Positions 19,523 through 39,197 of a stretch of 64,000 nt of DNA are shown in pieces; position 1 is the stretch's first letter; each line of letters opens with the position of its first letter. The notes below the pieces were generated by a model. It was not told where the DNA came from, made no database searches, and was given only the letters and a program-made list of their open reading frames with translations. The translations under genes and the position numbers were made by a program. This DNA comes from an uncultured Candidatus Rokubacteria bacterium (GTDB taxonomy: Bacteria > Methylomirabilota > Methylomirabilia > Rokubacteriales > CSP1-6). The stretch lies in assembly GCA_963762145.1 (NCBI GenBank), contig CAVXJS010000011.1, positions 384,001-448,000 on the forward strand, in the 5' to 3' direction.

Positions 19523-21319
19523 TCACGCCTCCTTGTACCAGAAGGGGAGGTGCCAGAAATCGGAGTCCCAGCCGCTCTGGGTCGCCCGGAGCTTGTTGCT
19601 GATCGCGGCCACCCGCGGGCGCCAGGCCACCGGGATCGCCACCACGTTCTTGATCACGAGGTCGTTCATCTGGATGAAGATCGCGGCCCGCTTGACCGGA
19701 TCCATCTCGCTCTCGGTCGCCCGGAAGAGCTTGCCGTACTCCTCGCTCTGCCAGCGCGTGATGTTGCGCCCCTGCCACTTGTTCTCCTTGGTGGAGACCT
19801 CCCAGGGGGTGAACTGCAGCATGAAGGTCTGCGGGTCCGGCACGGTCTGGGTGACCGTGTACATCTGGATGTCGGTGTAGAAGTGCGGGTAGGTGTCCGG
19901 GTTGGCCGGATCGGACGAGAAGTACACCGACGCGGTCACCGACTTGATCTCGATCTCGATGCCCGCCTTGGCCGCGGCCTGCTTGACGATGGCCTGGGTC
20001 TTCTGGCGGGGAGCGTTGATCGAGGTCTGGTACACGATCTTGAGCTTCTTGCCGTCCTTGGCCCGGACCCCGTCGGCGCCCTTCTTCCAGCCCGCGGCCT
20101 CCAGGATCTGGTTGGCCTTGTCCACGTTGAACTCCCACTTCGTGTTCTTGGACGCGAAGCGGGCGGGCGCGTTCAGGAAGTTCGCGGTGGTGATCGCGGT
20201 GCGCCCGTAGATCTGCTCCTGGATCGAGGCCCGGTCCACCAGCAGGCTGAGCGCCTGGCGCACCGCGGGGTCGGTCAGGAAGGGGTGCTTGGTCTTGAGG
20301 CTGGAGCGCTCGCCGTCCACCTCGGTCCACGGGTCGGTGTTGTTGAGCTGGATGTGCTCCATGTTGCCGCCGGTGACCATGTCGGCCTTGCCGCGGCCGT
20401 TCTGCTCGAAGCGCAGGAGGATCTCGTCCTCCACCTGCATGTTCCAGGCGTAGTCGTACTCGCCGGTCTGCATGACCGCCCGCGCGGCCGAGACCGCGTC
20501 GCCGCCGCCCTTCATCTCGATCGAGTCGAAGAACGGCCGGTTCGCGACGTGGTAGTTGGGGTTGATGTCGCCCCGCACGATGTCGCCCGGCTTGAAGTCC
20601 ACGAACTTGTACGGACCGGTGCCGACCGGCTTGAGGTTGTTCGGCGCCTCGCGCGACTTCTCGCCCTTGTAGGCCTCGAAGAGGTGCTTCGGGATGATCA
20701 TCCCGTCCACGCCGCAGAAGGCCTCACCCCAGAACGGGACCGGCTTCTTGAAGACGAGCCGCACGGTGTGGGGGTCCAGCACGTCGATCTTCTCGATGTC
20801 GGTGTACGAGCCGATCGTCCGCGCCGCGGTCTTGGGATCGCGCACGAACTCCCAGTTGAACACCACGTCGTCGGCGGTGAAGGGCTTGCCGTCGTGCCAG
20901 GTGACGCCCTTCTTGAGCTTCCAGGTCACGGAGCGGCCGTCGCGGGCGACGCCCCCGTTCTGAACCGACGGGATCTCGGCGGCGAGCACCGGGAAGAGGT
21001 TGCCCTCCGGATCGTAGGCCGCGAGCGGCTCGTAGAAGATCCGCGAGCCGTCCTGGTCCTTGGTGCCGGTGGCGAAGTGCGGGTTGAGGAGCGTCGGGGC
21101 CTGCCACCACAGCACCTTGAGCTGGCCGCCGCCCCCGCGCTTGGTCGGCGTGAACATCCCGCCCTTCGGCTGCGCCTGCGCGACCCCCGCGGAGGCGAGC
21201 ATCTGCGCGGCCAGCGGGGCGGTCAGCCCGAGCGCCATCATGCCCTGTACGAACTCCCGACGGCTCAAGCTCCCGGCCTTGACTCGGCCGATCATGTCCC
21301 TCAGTTCACGCTCTTGCAT
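19523..21319 (-). CDS. Family 5 ABC substrate-binding protein, Tat signal
   Basis: SRREFV twin-arginine; GVTWHDGKPFTADDV; GTGPY. Confidence 0.9.
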   Translation of the reverse strand: MQERELRDMIGRVKAGSLSRREFVQGMMALGLTAPLAAQMLASAGVAQAQPKGGMFTPTKRGGGGQLKVLWWQAPTLLNPHFATGTKDQDGSRIFYEPLAAYDPEGNLFPVLAAEIPSVQNGGVARDGRSVTWKLKKGVTWHDGKPFTADDVVFNWEFVRDPKTAARTIGSYTDIEKIDVLDPHTVRLVFKKPVPFWGEAFCGVDGMIIPKHLFEAYKGEKSREAPNNLKPVGTGPYKFVDFKPGDIVRGDINPNYHVANRPFFDSIEMKGGGDAVSAARAVMQTGEYDYAWNMQVEDEILLRFEQNGRGKADMVTGGNMEHIQLNNTDPWTEVDGERSSLKTKHPFLTDPAVRQALSLLVDRASIQEQIYGRTAITTANFLNAPARFASKNTKWEFNVDKANQILEAAGWKKGADGVRAKDGKKLKIVYQTSINAPRQKTQAIVKQAAAKAGIEIEIKSVTASVYFSSDPANPDTYPHFYTDIQMYTVTQTVPDPQTFMLQFTPWEVSTKENKWQGRNITRWQSEEYGKLFRATESEMDPVKRAAIFIQMNDLVIKNVVAIPVAWRPRVAAISNKLRATQSGWDSDFWHLPFWYKEA

Positions 21320-21418: not shown

Positions 21419-23218
21419 TCACGACTGCTTGTACCAGTAGGGTAGGCGCCAGAACGTGGAGTCCCACCCGGTCAGGTCCATGCCCTGCAGCGCGTTGGCC
21501 GCGCCCGAGACGCCGTTGCGCCACAGGACCGGGATCACCACCGCGTTGGTGATCACGATGTCGTTCATCTTGATGAACAGCGCCGCGCGCTTGACCGGAT
21601 CGAGCTCGCTGTCCGCCGCGTTGTAGGTGCGGTCGTACTCGTCGTTGCGGAAGCGGGTGATGTTCCGGCCCTGCCACTTGTTGGCCTTCTGGGAGGCCTC
21701 CCAGGAGCAGAACTGGTTCATGAAGTACTGCGGGTCCGGCGCGGTCATGGTGGTGTTGTACATCTGCAGATCGGCGTAGAAGTGCGGGTAGGTATCAGGG
21801 TTCGCGGGGTCCGACGAGAAGAAGACCGAGGCCACCACCGACTTGATCTCGATCTCGATGCCGGCCTTGGCCGCCGCCTGCTTGACGATGGCCTGGTTCT
21901 TCTGGCGGGGGGCGTTGATCGACGTCTGGAACAGGAACTTGAGCCGCTTGCCGTCCTTGGCCCGGATCCCGTCGGCGCCGCGCTTCCAGCCCGCCGCGTC
22001 GAGGACCTGGTTGGCCTTGTCCACGCTGAATTCCCAGCGCGTGTTTTTCGAGAAGAAGCGGGACGGTGCGTTGAGGAAGTTGGCGCTGGTCTGCCCGCCG
22101 CGCCCGTAGATCTCCTCCTGGACCGCGGCGCGGTCCACGAGCAGGGTCAGGGCCTGGCGGACCGCCGGGTCCGAGAGGACCGGGTGGGTCGTCTTGATGC
22201 TGGAGCGCTCGCCGTCCACCTCGGTCCACGGGTCGGTGAAGTTGCACTGCATGTGCTCCGGGTTCCCGGTGGGCCAGAGGTTGACGCGCCCCTTGCCGCC
22301 CTGCTCCATCCGGCGCAGGATGTCGTCCTCCACCTGCAGGTTCCAGGCGTAGTCGTACTCCCCGGTCTGCAGCACCGCGCGCGCGGCGGACACCGCGTCG
22401 CCTCCGCCCTTCATCTCGATGGCGTCGAAGAACGGGCGGTTGGCCACGTGGTAGGCGGGGTTCGCCTCGCCGCGCACGATGTCGCCCGGCTTGAAGTCGG
22501 TGAGCCGGTAGGGACCGGTGCCGACCGGCTTCAGGTTGGCGGGCGCCTCGCGGCTCTTCGCGCCCTTGAACGCGTCGAACACGTGCTTGGGCAGGATGGA
22601 GCCCCGCGTGCCGCAGAACGGGTCGGCCCAGAACGGCTGAGGCTTGGCGAAGGTGAGCTTGACGGTGTGGCTGTCCACCTTCTCGATCTTCGAGATCTCC
22701 CGGTAGGAGCCGCTGCTCACCGCGGCGGTGGCCGGGTCCGAGGCGAACTCGTAGGTGAAGATCACGTCGTCGGCGGTGAGCGGCTTGCCGTCGTGCCAGG
22801 TCACGCCTTTCTTGAGGCGCCACGTGACCGAGGTGAGATCGCGGGAGAGCCCGCCGTTCTGGATGGTCGGGGCCTCCGCGGCCAGGATCGGGATCAGGTT
22901 GCCGTCGGGATCGAAGCCGCCCAGGGGCTCGTAGAAGATGCGCGAGGCATCCTGGTCCTTGGTGCCGGTGGCGAAGTGCGGATTCAGGAGGGTGGGAGCC
23001 TGCCACCACAGCGTCTTGAGCAGCCCACCGCCGCCCCGCTTGGTCGGGGTGAAGGCCGGCGCCTTGGGCTGGGCCTGGGCGATCCCGGCCGAGGCCAGCA
23101 TCTGGGCGGCCAGGGGCGCGGTGAGGCCGAGCCCGATCATCGTCTGTACGAAGGCGCGGCGGCTCAGGCGGCCCGCCTTCACTTCGGAGATCATTCCGCG
23201 GAGCGCATGCTCGTCCAT
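21419..23218 (-). CDS. Family 5 ABC substrate-binding protein, tandem paralog, Tat signal
   Basis: Start MDEHALR; SRRAFV; long blocks identical to 19523..21319. Confidence 0.9.
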   Translation of the reverse strand: MDEHALRGMISEVKAGRLSRRAFVQTMIGLGLTAPLAAQMLASAGIAQAQPKAPAFTPTKRGGGGLLKTLWWQAPTLLNPHFATGTKDQDASRIFYEPLGGFDPDGNLIPILAAEAPTIQNGGLSRDLTSVTWRLKKGVTWHDGKPLTADDVIFTYEFASDPATAAVSSGSYREISKIEKVDSHTVKLTFAKPQPFWADPFCGTRGSILPKHVFDAFKGAKSREAPANLKPVGTGPYRLTDFKPGDIVRGEANPAYHVANRPFFDAIEMKGGGDAVSAARAVLQTGEYDYAWNLQVEDDILRRMEQGGKGRVNLWPTGNPEHMQCNFTDPWTEVDGERSSIKTTHPVLSDPAVRQALTLLVDRAAVQEEIYGRGGQTSANFLNAPSRFFSKNTRWEFSVDKANQVLDAAGWKRGADGIRAKDGKRLKFLFQTSINAPRQKNQAIVKQAAAKAGIEIEIKSVVASVFFSSDPANPDTYPHFYADLQMYNTTMTAPDPQYFMNQFCSWEASQKANKWQGRNITRFRNDEYDRTYNAADSELDPVKRAALFIKMNDIVITNAVVIPVLWRNGVSGAANALQGMDLTGWDSTFWRLPYWYKQS

Positions 23219-35462: not shown

Positions 35463-36530
35463 ATGGAGCCGAGGCTGATCGATCCGAAGACCGGCAAGGA
35501 GATCCGTCTCACCGCCTACGCGGCCTGCGCGGGCTGAGCGTCGAAGATGGGTCCTGGAGATCTCCAGGACGTGCTCGGGGACCTGCGCGACGAGGAGCAC
35601 GCCGACCTGCTGGTGGGGCTCGGCCGGAGCGACGACGCCGCCGTCTATCGCGTGACCGACGACGTGGCCATCGTCGAGACGGTGGACTTCTTCCCGCCCA
35701 TCGTGGACGATCCCTATCTCTTCGGGGCGATCGCGGCCGCGAACTCGATGTCCGACGTGTACGCGATGGGCGGGCAGGTGCTGTTCGCGCTCAACGTGGC
35801 GGGCTTCCCGCGCGAGCTGCCCAAGGACATCATCGCCGCCGTCTTCCGCGGGGGCGCCGACAAGGTGCGTGAGGCGGGCGGCGTCATCGCGGGCGGGCAC
35901 ACCGTCGTGGACGCGGAGCCCAAGTACGGGCTCTGCGTGACCGGCCGGGTGGACCCGCAACGCATCCTGATCAAGGGCGGGCTCCGCCCGGGTCAGCGGG
36001 TGTTCCTCTCGAAGCCGCTCGGCACCGGGGTGATCGCGACCGCGGCCAAGAGCGACCGGTGCGAGCCCGCCGTGCTCGACGGCGCGGTGCAGAGCATGCT
36101 GCGGCTCAACCGCGTGGCCGCGCTCGCGGCGCTGGAAGCGGGGGCGACCGGGGCCACCGACATCACCGGCTTCGGGCTCCTCGGCCACGCCAGCGAGATG
36201 GTCGCCGCCTCCGGCGCAGGTCTGGTCCTTCGGAGCGCCGACCTGCCGCTCTTGCCGGGTGCGCGCGCGCTCGCGGACCTCGGAACCTTCAGCGGCGGCA
36301 TGGGCCGCAACCGCCGCTACCTGGAAGACGAGTTCGGACGGCTCCGCATCGACCCGGCGGTTCCGGACGCGCTCGTCAAGCTGCTCTGCGAGTCGGAGAC
36401 CTCCGGTGGTCTTCTCTTCGCCGTCGATCCAGCACGCGCCGTCACCGTGCACGAGGCATTCGCGCGCGCCGGCGAGCCCGTCTGGGAGATCGGTGAGGTA
36501 ACCGCCGAGCTGCCCCTCGCGCTGATCTAG
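35463..36530 (+). CDS. selD: Selenophosphate synthetase, Sec-containing (TGA 35535-35537)
   Basis: IRLTAYAACAG*ASKMGP (U-x-x-K) in frame with ORF 35547..36530; DDAAV, TVDFF, SDVYAMGG, TDITGFGLLGH. Confidence 0.92.
35551..35570 (+). promoter_or_regulatory. Putative SECIS hairpin of selD
   Basis: GTCCTGGA-GATC-TCCAGGAC; loop G at +22. Confidence 0.7.
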
Positions 36531-36554
36531 GCACCGGCGGCAAGATCAACCGCT

Positions 36555-36605
36555 TCGAGCGCGGGCTTCGCCCGCGCAACCTGCTTCTGGGGGGAGGTTC
36601 GGAAG
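36555..36605. repeat. REP-like element, left part (split by the IS)
   Basis: GCGCGGGC-TTC-GCCCGCGC hairpin, then GGGGGGAGGTTCGGAAG, which rejoins 37733-37754 into a second hairpin. Confidence 0.65.
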
Positions 36606-36620
36606 CGACTGTCTTGCCGG

Positions 36621-37553
36621 TCAAGCGGGTTGCCATGGGCGGCGGTCCCGGAGCATGGCGTTGAGGATCGTGAGCAACTTGCGCATGGCCGCGATGACGG
36701 CGACCTTCTTGGGGCGCCCCGCGGCCGTGAGCCGCCGGTAGACCTCCCGGATCACCGGGTTGTGGTGAATCGCCACGATGGTGGGCATGTACAGCGCGCG
36801 GCGGACGGCGGCCCGGCCCCCGCCGATCATGCGCCGCCCCCGCCAGCGGCCGCTGTCGCGATTCCACGGCGCCAGGCCGACGAGCGCGGCAATCCGACGC
36901 CGATCCAGCCGACCCAGTTCCGGGAGGTCGGCGATCAGCGCGTGCGCGGTGAGGGCGCCAATCCCGGGCGCCGAGGTCAGCAGATCCTCCGTCTCCCGCC
37001 ACACGGAGCTCGTGCGAATGAGCCGGGCGATCGCCGCGTCGACCTCCGCGATCGCCCGCGTGAGCCACGTGACGTGCGCCCGGATGCGCTGTTGCAGCCC
37101 GCGGACCCGCGCTTGGCGATGCCGGTTCTGCTCGGCCCCCAGCATATCGACGAGCTGGCGCCGCCGGGCCACGAGTTCCCCCAGCCCCTGCGCCTGCTCC
37201 GTGGCCAGCGGCCGCGCCGCCGGCTGCACCAACTCCGCAAAGCGCGCATTGGCCCGCGCATCGAGCCGATCCGTCTTCGCCAGCTGCCCCGTGGCCAGCG
37301 CAAACTGCCGGACCTGCCGGGGATTGACCACCGCCACCGGTAACCCGGCGTGCGCCAGCGCGGCGGCGACGGCGCTCTCATACCCGCCGGTCGCTTCCAG
37401 CACAATCAGCGTCGGCCGCAGGTCGACCAGCCGGTGCACCAGCGTGGCCACCCCCGCCTCTTCGTACGCCACCGCGAACTCCTCATCCGTGGGGCGTACA
37501 TGCACGTCCAGCCGATCCTTCGAGACATCCAGCCCCACGAAGATCCGTTCCAT
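36621..37553 (-). CDS. IS110-family DEDD recombinase, 310 aa
   Basis: VGLDVSK, LEATGGYE, KTDRLDA (RuvC-like DEDD); C-terminal Tnp domain with RDSG serine. Confidence 0.93.
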   Translation of the reverse strand: MERIFVGLDVSKDRLDVHVRPTDEEFAVAYEEAGVATLVHRLVDLRPTLIVLEATGGYESAVAAALAHAGLPVAVVNPRQVRQFALATGQLAKTDRLDARANARFAELVQPAARPLATEQAQGLGELVARRRQLVDMLGAEQNRHRQARVRGLQQRIRAHVTWLTRAIAEVDAAIARLIRTSSVWRETEDLLTSAPGIGALTAHALIADLPELGRLDRRRIAALVGLAPWNRDSGRWRGRRMIGGGRAAVRRALYMPTIVAIHHNPVIREVYRRLTAAGRPKKVAVIAAMRKLLTILNAMLRDRRPWQPA

Positions 37554-37719
37554 GTCCCGTCCTTGTCGATGCGGGCTCGCCGAGCGGCCCAAGCGACTGT
37601 TCGGGTTCACGGCACGTGAAGCGGCAGGCAGGGCCCCAGGCTTCCGAACGGTCTTGGCCGACCCAGGGGGGCGCGGGCTCCCGCCCGCCTTCACTCCGGC
37701 TACGCTATCCGCCGGAGTT
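37554..37719 (-). ncRNA. Predicted bridge RNA
   Basis: 5' hairpin 37693-37718; guides in canonical order: LTG 37674-37665, RTG 37649-37641, LDG 37600-37591, RDG 37566-37562, each matching the insertion junctions. Confidence 0.85.
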
Positions 37720-37732
37720 CCTAAGATACAAG

Positions 37733-37754
37733 GGGGGCGCAGCCCCCCTCCGAG
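37733..37754. repeat. REP-like element, right part
   Basis: GGGGGCGCAGCCCCCCTCCGAG completes the target hairpin. Confidence 0.65.
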
Positions 37755-38018
37755 CTATCTACTCGCGTCGGAGCGCTTCAGGAACGCGATCAGCTTCTGG
37801 CGGAGCTCGGCGGGGAGATTCGTCTCGGGGTGCTCACGAAGACGTCGGGCGGCGTTGACGGTACCTTTGTAAGTGTTGACGAAGGCCACGCACGGCGGGC
37901 AGCCGTCGAGATGCCACTCGAGCTGCGCGGTTTCCTCTTGAGGGAGCGACCCGTCGATGTAGTCGGCGAGCAGCTCGACACACTCCGGGCACCCGATCTC
38001 GCGCGACGCTCCGTCCAT
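37755..38018 (-). CDS. zf-HC2 (anti-sigma-like) zinc-finger protein
   Basis: C...LADYIDGSL...HLDGCPPC (HxxxCxxC). Confidence 0.8.
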   Translation of the reverse strand: MDGASREIGCPECVELLADYIDGSLPQEETAQLEWHLDGCPPCVAFVNTYKGTVNAARRLREHPETNLPAELRQKLIAFLKRSDASR

Positions 38019-38150
38019 CCGCTCCCCCTCGCCGGTGAGGCGATGACCTTGTGTAGCGAAACCTTAACACAGGGCCGGCCCGGAGCAAGTCCGTCTTTGC
38101 TTTCGCGTCAATTGCCTTGCCGCGCGGCGCCGGTGTAGGCTCTCGAAGCC

Positions 38151-39197
38151 ATGGCCGCCCGGGTGGCTGTCCTTGCGCCGTTCGCTTCGCCGTCGGTGCG
38201 TGGGAACGCCATCACGGTGGATCGCATCACGCGCGGCCTCCGGCAGCGCGGCGTCGAAATACGGGTGTGGGATCTCTCGGTGGTGCCCGAAGGGGCGATC
38301 GAGCACCAGGTCGGCCAGTACGGACCCGCGGTCATCCACGCGTTCCACGCCTTGCGTACCGGCCCCACCGCGGTGCGGCTGGCGCGCCAGGTGGGCGTCC
38401 CGCTGCTGGTGACGGCCACGGGCACCGACGTGAACCACGACCTCTTCGACGAGGATGGCGCGCCGATCGTCCAGCGGGTGCTGGAGGGGGCGGGGGCGGT
38501 GAGCGTCTTCGACGAGTCCATGGTCGCCCGCATCATGGAGGCGCTGCCCGCGACGGCGGGCCGGCTCGTGGTGATCCCGCAAAGCGCCGTGTTCGAGATG
38601 CCGCCGTCCGGCCACTGGCCGCCCATCGCCGCGCTCCAGCGGCGGCCCGGCCCAATCATCCTGTTTCCGGCGGGCATCCGGAGGGTGAAGCGGCCCATGT
38701 TCCCGCTCGAGCCGCTCGAAGGCCTGCGCGACCGGTATCCGACGCTCGACCTCGTCTACGTGGGACCCATCATCGACGCAGCGGAAGGCGAGGCCTTACG
38801 CCGGCTGCTGAGCGCGTATCCGTGGGCGGAGTACCTGGGGGCGGTGCCGCACCATCGAATGCCCGCCCTCTTCGACCTGGCGGACGTGGTGCTCAACTGC
38901 TCGATCGCCGAGGGCGGGATGGCCAACGCGATCGTCGAGGCGCTCGCGCTCGGCCGGGCGGTGCTCGCCGCCGACATCGCGGGCAACCGATCGCTCGTCG
39001 AGGACGGGGTGACCGGCTTCCTGTTCGGCTCGACGGAGGAGTTCGCCGTGAAGGCCGACCGCCTGCTGCAGGATCCCGACCTCCGCGCGCGGCTCGGCGT
39101 GGCGGGGCGCGAGCGTGTCAGCGCGCGCTTCGGCGCCGATCGCGAGACCGACGGCTACCTCGCCGCGTACGCGCGACTGGCGCCCGGCTTCGCCTGA
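38151..39197 (+). CDS. GT4 glycosyltransferase, SenB/GPMC-system-like
   Basis: GNAIT, HAFHA, TGTD, IRRVKRP and SIAEGGMANAIVEA motifs. Confidence 0.8.
   Translation: MAARVAVLAPFASPSVRGNAITVDRITRGLRQRGVEIRVWDLSVVPEGAIEHQVGQYGPAVIHAFHALRTGPTAVRLARQVGVPLLVTATGTDVNHDLFDEDGAPIVQRVLEGAGAVSVFDESMVARIMEALPATAGRLVVIPQSAVFEMPPSGHWPPIAALQRRPGPIILFPAGIRRVKRPMFPLEPLEGLRDRYPTLDLVYVGPIIDAAEGEALRRLLSAYPWAEYLGAVPHHRMPALFDLADVVLNCSIAEGGMANAIVEALALGRAVLAADIAGNRSLVEDGVTGFLFGSTEEFAVKADRLLQDPDLRARLGVAGRERVSARFGADRETDGYLAAYARLAPGFA

Follow-up and report, generated by a model that had tools for sequence, protein, structure and literature searches.

The DNA examined here is a 64-kb stretch (hereafter the window, to which all coordinates refer) of contig CAVXJS010000011.1 in the metagenome-assembled genome (MAG) of an uncultured Candidatus Rokubacteria bacterium (assembly GCA_963762145.1). 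It contains an insertion sequence (IS) of the IS110 type, all features of which are read on the minus strand: a non-coding left end of 177 nt (37730-37554), directly followed by the reading frame of a 310-aa recombinase (37553-36621), and a short right end that extends 17 nt beyond the stop codon (36620-36604). A sequence-only reading of the window, made without database searches, had taken the left end to encode a bridge RNA resembling that of IS621, with all four guides legible and with a programme directed at a host hairpin resembling a repetitive extragenic palindrome (REP). The host genome comprises 6.26 Mb in 25 contigs, is 88% complete and has a GC content of 70%, and MAGs of Methylomirabilia and Rokubacteria are nearest among the titled relatives, which fits the high-GC, probably uncultured lineage proposed in that reading.

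The element, its host repeat and its recombinase

The ends of the element were defined by aligning the three copies present in the genome, which are 99% identical and each sit at the same base of the same REP-like hairpin, the outcome expected in the sequence-only reading if other copies were found. Identity among the copies begins 24 nt before the left core, inside the shared host motif, and ends 5 nt after the right core, and the outer flanks are unrelated. Because these limits fall inside the same motif, the element is assigned to 37730-36604, or 1127 bp with one core counted. A CT core is found at both junctions, in CGCCCCC (37739-37733), CT (37732-37731) and TGTAT (37730-37726) on the left and in ACAGTCG (36612-36606), CT (36605-36604) and TCCGA (36603-36599) on the right. 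The three copies differ from one another at few bases, and the full 310-aa open frame is kept in all of them.

On the host side, the left part of the hairpin (CTCGGAGGGGGGCTGCGCCCCCCT, 37754-37731) includes the left target CGCCCCC and the left core CT, and represents 24 nt common to the three copies, which share nothing further upstream. The right part of the repeat (36603-36552) consists of TCCGA, ACCTCCCCCC (36598-36589) and a second hairpin (36577-36558), in the same arrangement as in uninterrupted copies. On the element side, the left end (37730-37723) starts with the right donor TGTAT, followed by CTT (37725-37723) as one arm of a sub-terminal inverted repeat (STIR); the motif CTTGTAT is invariant in a 32-sequence alignment. 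The right end (36624-36604, in the last 23 nt) carries TTGACC (36624-36619), which overlaps the stop codon, then the second STIR arm AAG (36615-36613), the left donor ACAGTCG and the core.

The recombinase combines a DEDD RuvC-like domain (PF01548, 5.1e-21) with a Tnp domain (PF02371, 6.4e-18). In an alignment to the solved IS621 structure, whose chain numbering is offset by 2 as printed, residues D9, E53, D95 and D98 align with IS621 D11, E60, D102 and D105, and S234-G235, the catalytic serine and glycine of the Tnp domain, align with S241-G242. All of these residues are invariant in 11 relatives. The length of 310 aa is taken to be correct because homologues start within a few residues of the ATG at 37553; a longer frame opening with GTG at 37694 was rejected, as it overlaps the RNA and is unsupported by homologue starts. 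Calling the enzyme compact had overstated the matter, as it is only ∼5% shorter than the 326 residues of the IS621 protein. The 90% protein cluster of the recombinase has 126 members from several sources, and among the 15 members listed, several of 271-280 aa bear the name "nitrile hydratase accessory protein" and one is named "cobaltochelatase CobN". These public names look like a propagated annotation error.

A predicted left-end RNA with four guides

When the minus strand of 37554-37719 is folded as a single sequence, an 8-bp hairpin forms at the 5' end, followed by a large internal loop that is closed by a 10-bp stem and contains a small inner hairpin. After a short hairpin in the linker comes a second stem-loop built in the same way. 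The 5' hairpin (37718-37693) and the two stem-loops with internal loops described from the letters alone are thus present in this fold. A scan of a genome collection supplied 17 loci of relatives for comparison, and a metagenome scan a further 80, kept out of 592 confirmed. A covariance model, R1, was then derived from 32 aligned left ends and their RNAalifold consensus, minus three unsupported loop pairs; its E-values are rough, the calibration having been shortened. R1, the kind of homologue-based model that the sequence-only reading had proposed as a check, gave 101 matches across all 100 sources searched (297,495 bases), with one match upstream of each recombinase gene and two in locus L017. 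In that locus, positions 525-717 and 1793-1981 belong to two different bridge-RNA elements in tandem, the second beginning ∼100 nt after the first ends. The window holds a single match, at the left end of the element, and each of the three genomic copies consists of one R1 match with one PF01548 match, with none unpaired and no others in the genome.

Standard pairs fill 94.1% of the cells in the R1 alignment, as compared to 75.9% in shuffles and 36.5-49.6% when partners are slid by 1-3 columns, and 18 of the 26 pairs show compensatory changes on both sides. This alignment was fitted to the model and leans towards its structure; an independent MAFFT/RNAalifold result agrees with it, with 14 of 29 pairs compensatory, and so does the slide control. 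As read from the aligned relatives, compensatory pair changes of this kind show selection on a folded single strand. The target-binding loop module (37689-37623) has a closing stem of 37689-37680 paired with 37632-37623 and an inner hairpin at 37663-37650: helix 1 has both-side changes in 12 of 13 pairs (95.4% of cells paired) and helix 2 in three of four (96.7%). The donor-binding loop module (37605-37556), seen in both the single-sequence fold and R1, is closed by CCCG (37605-37602) with CGGG (37559-37556) and contains an inner hairpin at 37591-37572. Its helix 4 has both-side changes in three of five pairs, and its closing stem (helix 3) is uninformative for covariation because it is nearly invariant. 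The 5' stem-loop with its 8-bp stem comes from the single-sequence fold; the region aligns poorly among relatives and has no pairs in R1.

All four guide strings named in the sequence-only reading lie on the minus strand upstream of the 310-aa IS110 recombinase, in the coordinates and order given there, although their lengths needed revision. The left target guide (LTG) with its core, CGCCCCCCU (37673-37665), is identical to the top strand of the seven left target letters (LT1-7) plus the core, a 9/9 match; the claimed tenth letter, the leading G37674, is an invariant base after the stem. The right target guide (RTG), UCGGAAG (37647-37641), is the reverse complement of the core CT and the right target (RT) TCCGA over 7/7 letters. 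The claimed 9/9 match was too long, because the next letter outward has no signal across the family (at the eighth letter, 16% of own flanks match as compared to 13% of non-own flanks among 57 distinct guides), which makes the additional matches at U37648 and G37649 chance. G37649 is moreover an invariant scaffold base that belongs to the inner stem, and both of those flank positions hold different bases in the two other copies of the genome. The left donor guide (LDG) with its core, ACAGUCGCU (37600-37592), is identical to the last 9 nt of the element; nine of the ten letters originally assigned to it stand, and the tenth, U37591, forms the first pair of the inner donor-loop stem in the family consensus. 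For the right donor guide (RDG), ACAAG is present at 37566-37562 as described, and the guide is longer and discontiguous, probably the 9 nt AUCGACAAG (37570-37562), in which a 2-nt bulge would separate ACAAG, paired with CTTGT, from AU, paired with the AT of the right donor. The resulting order of LTG, RTG, LDG and RDG is that of IS621, for which the available part of Durrant et al. 2024 (PMC11208160) describes a 5' stem-loop followed by a target loop (LTG and RTG) and a donor loop (LDG and RDG), and places them all upstream of a DEDD/Ser recombinase.

The occurrence of all four strings in order in the left end was not reproduced in any of 200,000 mononucleotide shuffles, and the two target strings in order were obtained twice in 200,000. 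Across the 6.26-Mb genome, the nine letters of left target plus core (LT9) followed by the RTG string within 45 nt occur three times, each time in one of the IS copies. To compare guides with flanks across the family, left ends were set by the invariant CTTGTAT and right ends by a guide-free rule, TTGA located 21 nt before the terminal CT. Among the 101 rows, this gave a left end in 80 and a right end in 79, 75 of the latter with a plausible donor starting with AC. The 75 loci with a guide and an AC-donor right end provide 57 distinct RTGs, in which 265 of 285 variable letters match the right flank of the same locus; the mean for non-own flanks is 1.59 of five letters, and none of 10,000 permutations reached the observed total. 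All five variable letters match the own flank in 45 of the 57, and the two core letters match in 100% and 98%.

The LTG test covered 73 loci with 63 distinct guides, three registers being allowed for own and non-own pairs alike. Here, 316 of 441 letters match the own flank as compared to a non-own mean of 3.03 of seven, and none of 5,000 permutations reached the total. In the register of the window, own flanks match at a rate that climbs from 0.29 at LT1 to 0.67-0.79 across LT4-7, and the 7/7 match of the window (7+2 with the core) stands at the high end, longer than the family norm. These permutation tests leave kinship among loci in; the statistic is direct guide-flank identity or complementarity, not mere correlation. 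On the donor side, 72 of 76 loci have the same seven letters in the LDG and the left donor, and this holds across 10 different donor sequences. Because the right donor is almost invariant in the family, support for the RDG consists of the match in the window and a few loci with CTAG variants: L044 is the only row listed with both ends that has CTAGTAT, and its guide carries CUAG; L015, L016 and L018 show the same.

Two further short features follow the core-pairing letters. In the available part of the IS621 work of Hiraizumi et al. 2024 (PMC11208158), each loop has a handshake guide immediately 3' of the letters that pair with the core. Once strands have been exchanged, this guide is reported to pair with position 7 of the other DNA, and pairing with the cognate DNA to block exchange. 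The target loop of the window has CC at this place (37640-37639), and the first C is complementary to donor G7 but not to target C7; across the family, 74 of 75 loci have a pair between this letter and donor position 7 (68 C:G and 6 U:A), and the six loci with donor A7 all switch to U:A. The donor loop has GA (37561-37560), the G of which is complementary to target C7 but not to donor G7, and the equivalent letter pairs with LT7 in 68 of 76 loci, with a wobble in five and no pair in three. The overlapping AAGGA (37564-37560) looks like a candidate ribosome-binding site for the recombinase.

The STIR is 3 bp long, its AAG arm preceding the left donor and its CTT arm following the right donor. 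Its pair 1 is complementary in 57 of 64 loci (48 G:C and 9 C:G) and its pair 2 in 60 of 64. The right end provides TTGACC plus 15 nt and the left end TG followed by TATCTT (37728-37723), so that joined ends, read here from the two ends separately, give a -35-like TTGACC, a 17-nt spacer and a -10-like TATCTT. This arrangement is proposed as a predicted sigma-70-type promoter.

Site choice in the host repeat and among relatives

The target motif, CTCGGAGGGGGG-CNNNG-CCCCCC-T-TCCGA, forms a hairpin of ∼11 bp with one bulge (-20 to -27 kcal/mol), lies a few bases after stop codons, and is usually followed by CCTCCCCCC and a second hairpin. The IS is inserted in the 3' arm of the hairpin, in the same orientation as the upstream gene, and such insertions are tolerated because the hairpin repeat lies directly after stop codons. 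Eight uninterrupted pattern-matching copies and three occupied ones make at least 11 in the genome, with looser variants also present, which agrees with the claim that the RNA is programmed for a host REP-like hairpin. The exact 14-mer target has no unoccupied site in the genome, and six sites have at most one mismatch to it, only one of them inside the repeat. Occupied are the two sites without mismatch and one with a mismatch at LT1 (3/3). All eight uninterrupted repeat copies differ from the target and all are empty: one has a C to G change in the core, three have mismatches at LT1 and RT5, and four have a C run one base shorter. This pattern fits guide-coded specificity in what is a small sample from an incomplete genome.

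The hairpin belongs to a composite intergenic repeat family made up of a GC hairpin, CCTCCCCCC and the second hairpin GCGCGGGC-GAAG-GCCCGCGC (37754-37731 and 36603-36552 in the window; C7, C9, C14, C15, C19 and C21 in the genome). The repeat always lies a few bases behind a stop codon, a long form carries an additional inserted hairpin, and relatives of the repeat are found in metagenome loci L022-L024. Through insertion of the IS, the inner GC hairpin of the repeat has come to abut the T-rich left end, and together they resemble a terminator (37748-37723, minus strand). A terminator scan of the integrated copy found one site (37748-37733 plus a T-rich tail) as compared to 0.6 expected, which is not meaningful. 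This terminator-like site might damp read-through into the IS.

One tentative extension, which we regard as rather doubtful, is that in the Rokubacteria-centred clade the RTG carries most of the code (core plus five letters, 88-98% matched), the LTG is reliable over about four letters, and the GC-rich hairpin on the 5' side acts as a structural gate supplying the missing specificity. Such a gate would explain the four empty copies in which the core-proximal LT letters, the core and the RT match the guides and the C run is one base shorter. For ISPpu10 of Pseudomonas putida, a target stem-loop has been reported as an extra layer of specificity in the part of that preprint available (bioRxiv 10.64898/2026.03.19.712850). 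The element described here shares with it, as described there, a GC-rich stem-loop 5' of the core and the restriction of all insertions to copies of one intergenic repeat, which makes hairpin recognition a candidate in the present case. In the relatives from genome G109, the core lies elsewhere relative to the palindrome.

The distribution is patchy: when 151 genomes of the same order were sampled, 38 had R1 matches (1-5 per genome), as did 16 of the 53 genera. Genome G109 has three 1127-bp copies in a different repeat that is matched by their own guides, CAGCCCC-CT and CT-TGGGG. Loci L022-L024, with 76-81% protein identity, sit in the same repeat family as the window copy, and L024 targets TCCGG, RT5 and guide having changed together. 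In genome G141, two copies on contig C11 (L118 and L119) lie ∼60 kb apart in opposite orientation, and the RTG of each matches the right flank of the other copy and not its own, which is what inversion of the 60-kb segment by recombination between the copies would produce. Read evidence for the element itself consists of assembled contigs of four public runs, in which rare forms are dropped and parts without coverage carry no information. Metagenome contigs show at least three further left flanks, which diverge at exactly 37754/37755. Two contig joints that skip 1147-1150 nt were considered as excision products and rejected: their sides are 23-25 letters long and off the element ends, and they are read as other repeat copies.

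Proposed mechanism, alternatives and relation to known systems

Taken with its anatomy, its same-site copies, the conservation of its catalytic residues and the covariation both within the RNA and between guides and flanks, the element is very probably a complete, and probably an active, IS110-group insertion sequence that works like IS621. Transcription, circle formation and RNA-dependent catalysis we infer from the IS621 literature. Circularisation would join the right end (TTGACC) to the left end (TATCTT) and thereby form a sigma-70-type promoter, from which a bridge RNA of ∼165-175 nt would be transcribed from the left end, followed by the recombinase mRNA. The first internal loop would read the host sequence CGCCCCC-CT-TCCGA, its 5' side pairing with the bottom strand and its 3' side with the top strand, and the second would read the joined ends of the element, ACAGTCG-CT-TGTAT. 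A tetramer of the DEDD/Ser recombinase would then exchange strands at the CT core.

Several observations weigh against this interpretation. The folding check proposed in the sequence-only reading returned the expected stem-loops, but the energy of the single-sequence fold is unexceptional (z = -1.43, with 22 of 200 shuffles folding as well), and a few guide bases pair together in that fold, in pairs not kept in the family consensus. No Rfam match was found in 36000-38500 on both strands among 4227 families at E-values up to 1. Across the family, the LTG is weak at LT1-3, where 29-54% of own flanks match, and at most four of seven letters match in 21 of the 63 distinct LTGs. With a MAG of 25 contigs at 88% completeness, site and copy counts are lower bounds. 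The remaining such observations concern activity. Neither a right-end to left-end circle junction nor a precise empty-site contig was present among the assembled contigs of the four public runs, and a promoter scan of the integrated copy found no promoter-like site (0 found), so that an inserted copy could be expressed only through transcription that reads in from outside. As to transcripts, a single soil metatranscriptome contig, ∼96% alike, covers 37424-37685, which is a weak hint and could be DNA carry-over.

The absence of a circle junction, an empty-site contig and an integrated promoter from these data would fit an element with the right anatomy that is no longer mobile, its copies stemming from a past burst or from duplication of repeat-flanked segments and its RNA not being made today. 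Broken relatives do exist, L020 and L021 having interrupted recombinase frames. The copies in the genome, however, are nearly identical, keep full 310-aa frames and have different outer flanks, the further metagenome flanks part from the window at the same 37754/37755 boundary, and the 126 members of the protein cluster come from several sources; loss of mobility is accordingly considered unlikely. It is much less likely still that the protein alone picks the target and that the left-end strings are DNA binding sites or captured target copies rather than RNA guides. Guide-flank identity by itself cannot separate RNA from DNA, and the invariant closing stem of the donor loop offers no covariation evidence, but the compensatory changes in 18 of 26 pairs speak for a folded RNA. 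The strand logic and handshake positions also follow those of the solved IS621 RNA-DNA complexes, as far as the available descriptions go (5' side like the top strand, 3' side complementary), and relatives with ∼50-80% identical proteins lie at unrelated targets that match their own loops.

The least credible account, to which we give almost no weight, is that the four guide matches are coincidental in GC-rich, low-complexity sequence. The target is C-rich, C runs are common in a genome of 70% GC, and two of the nine letters first assigned to the RTG indeed match by chance. Against coincidence stand the shuffles (0/200,000 with all four strings in order), the restriction of LT9 followed by the RTG to the three IS copies across 6.26 Mb, and the family permutations (0/10,000 for the RTG and 0/5,000 for the LTG). 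The preferred reading therefore remains a bridge-RNA element of the IS621 kind.

The likeness to IS621 of E. coli (structures 8wt6-8wt9) extends from the same two-domain DEDD/Ser recombinase, with five catalytic residues aligned, to a left-end RNA in which a 5' stem-loop precedes target and donor loops, a CT core and the same strand logic of the four guides. As far as the available parts of the IS621 papers describe them, handshake guides, a predicted joined-end promoter, a STIR of 2-3 bp and insertion in a REP-type hairpin are also shared; such targeting of REP hairpins, in the available literature, has long been known for the IS110 family. The IS621 RDG is described there as discontiguous, in a 9-on-7 pattern, and the Rokubacteria RDG is likewise discontiguous. 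The proteins, on the other hand, match distantly (4.3e-34 over ∼304 residues, and 310 as compared to 326 aa), and the IS621 target, in the text available, is the 11-bp ATCAGGCCTAC as compared to CGCCCCC-CT-TCCGA here. In the Rokubacteria-centred clade, the RTG reads the core plus five letters, whereas that of wild-type IS621 is described as reading four, and the LTG, being reliable mainly over the four core-proximal letters, is effectively shorter than that of IS621. The earlier statement that the donor resembles that of IS621 holds in part: of the positions named in the available text, to which the comparison was restricted, 8, 9, 10 and 12 agree, and 6-7 are CG here as compared to AT. The clade differs from IS621 in degree only.

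The best-scoring solved relative is ISCro4, of the IS622 type (structure 9t56), a distant orthologue from Enterobacteria that was compared by protein and matches query residues 3-307 (6e-36) with the same domain order. The closest named IS found is ISMno7 on a plasmid of Methylobacterium nodulans (NC_011892.1), whose transposase is 55% identical to the recombinase across 99% of the query length. Immediately upstream of the ISMno7 transposase gene lies an R1 match of 134.1 bits (E = 5.5e-39), and the two elements share the CTTGTAT left end and the TTGAC...ACAGCCGCT right end; the target guides and host phylum of ISMno7 are different. An identity of 55% we take to make the present element a different IS by usual naming practice. 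In the IS1111 group, according to the available part of PMC11208160, the bridge or seek RNA lies in a long right end and STIRs measure 7-17 bp. Here, only 17 nt of right end follow the stop codon, the STIR measures 3 bp and it is the left end that R1 matches, and every defining feature of an IS110-group bridge system that can be assessed from sequence is present.

Two observations concern other genes of the window. The adjoining AIRS-domain gene (35463-36530, plus strand) resembles that of selenophosphate synthetase (SelD) and has an in-frame TGA (35535-35537) in its N-terminal motif AYAACAG-U-ASK; it probably encodes a selenocysteine-containing SelD that open reading frame calling with table 11 splits. 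Further away, 19619-20695 and 21518-22594 are 77-83% alike and spaced 1899 nt apart, and are probably tandem paralogous genes.

The literature searched contained no paper linking IS110 to Rokubacteria or bridge RNA to Methylomirabilota; the supplementary tables of the 2024 papers may already list such elements. The mechanism itself was published in 2024, and the element adds no new biology to it; it is a clean new example. What it adds is a natural bridge-RNA element of an uncultured soil phylum with high GC content, annotated in full down to each functional letter, a small natural mismatch scan in one genome, with three occupied as compared to eight empty repeat copies, and a family alignment of ∼100 loci that shows which guide letters covary. 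Together, these could help in mining orthologues for genome engineering and in annotating Rokubacteria MAGs.

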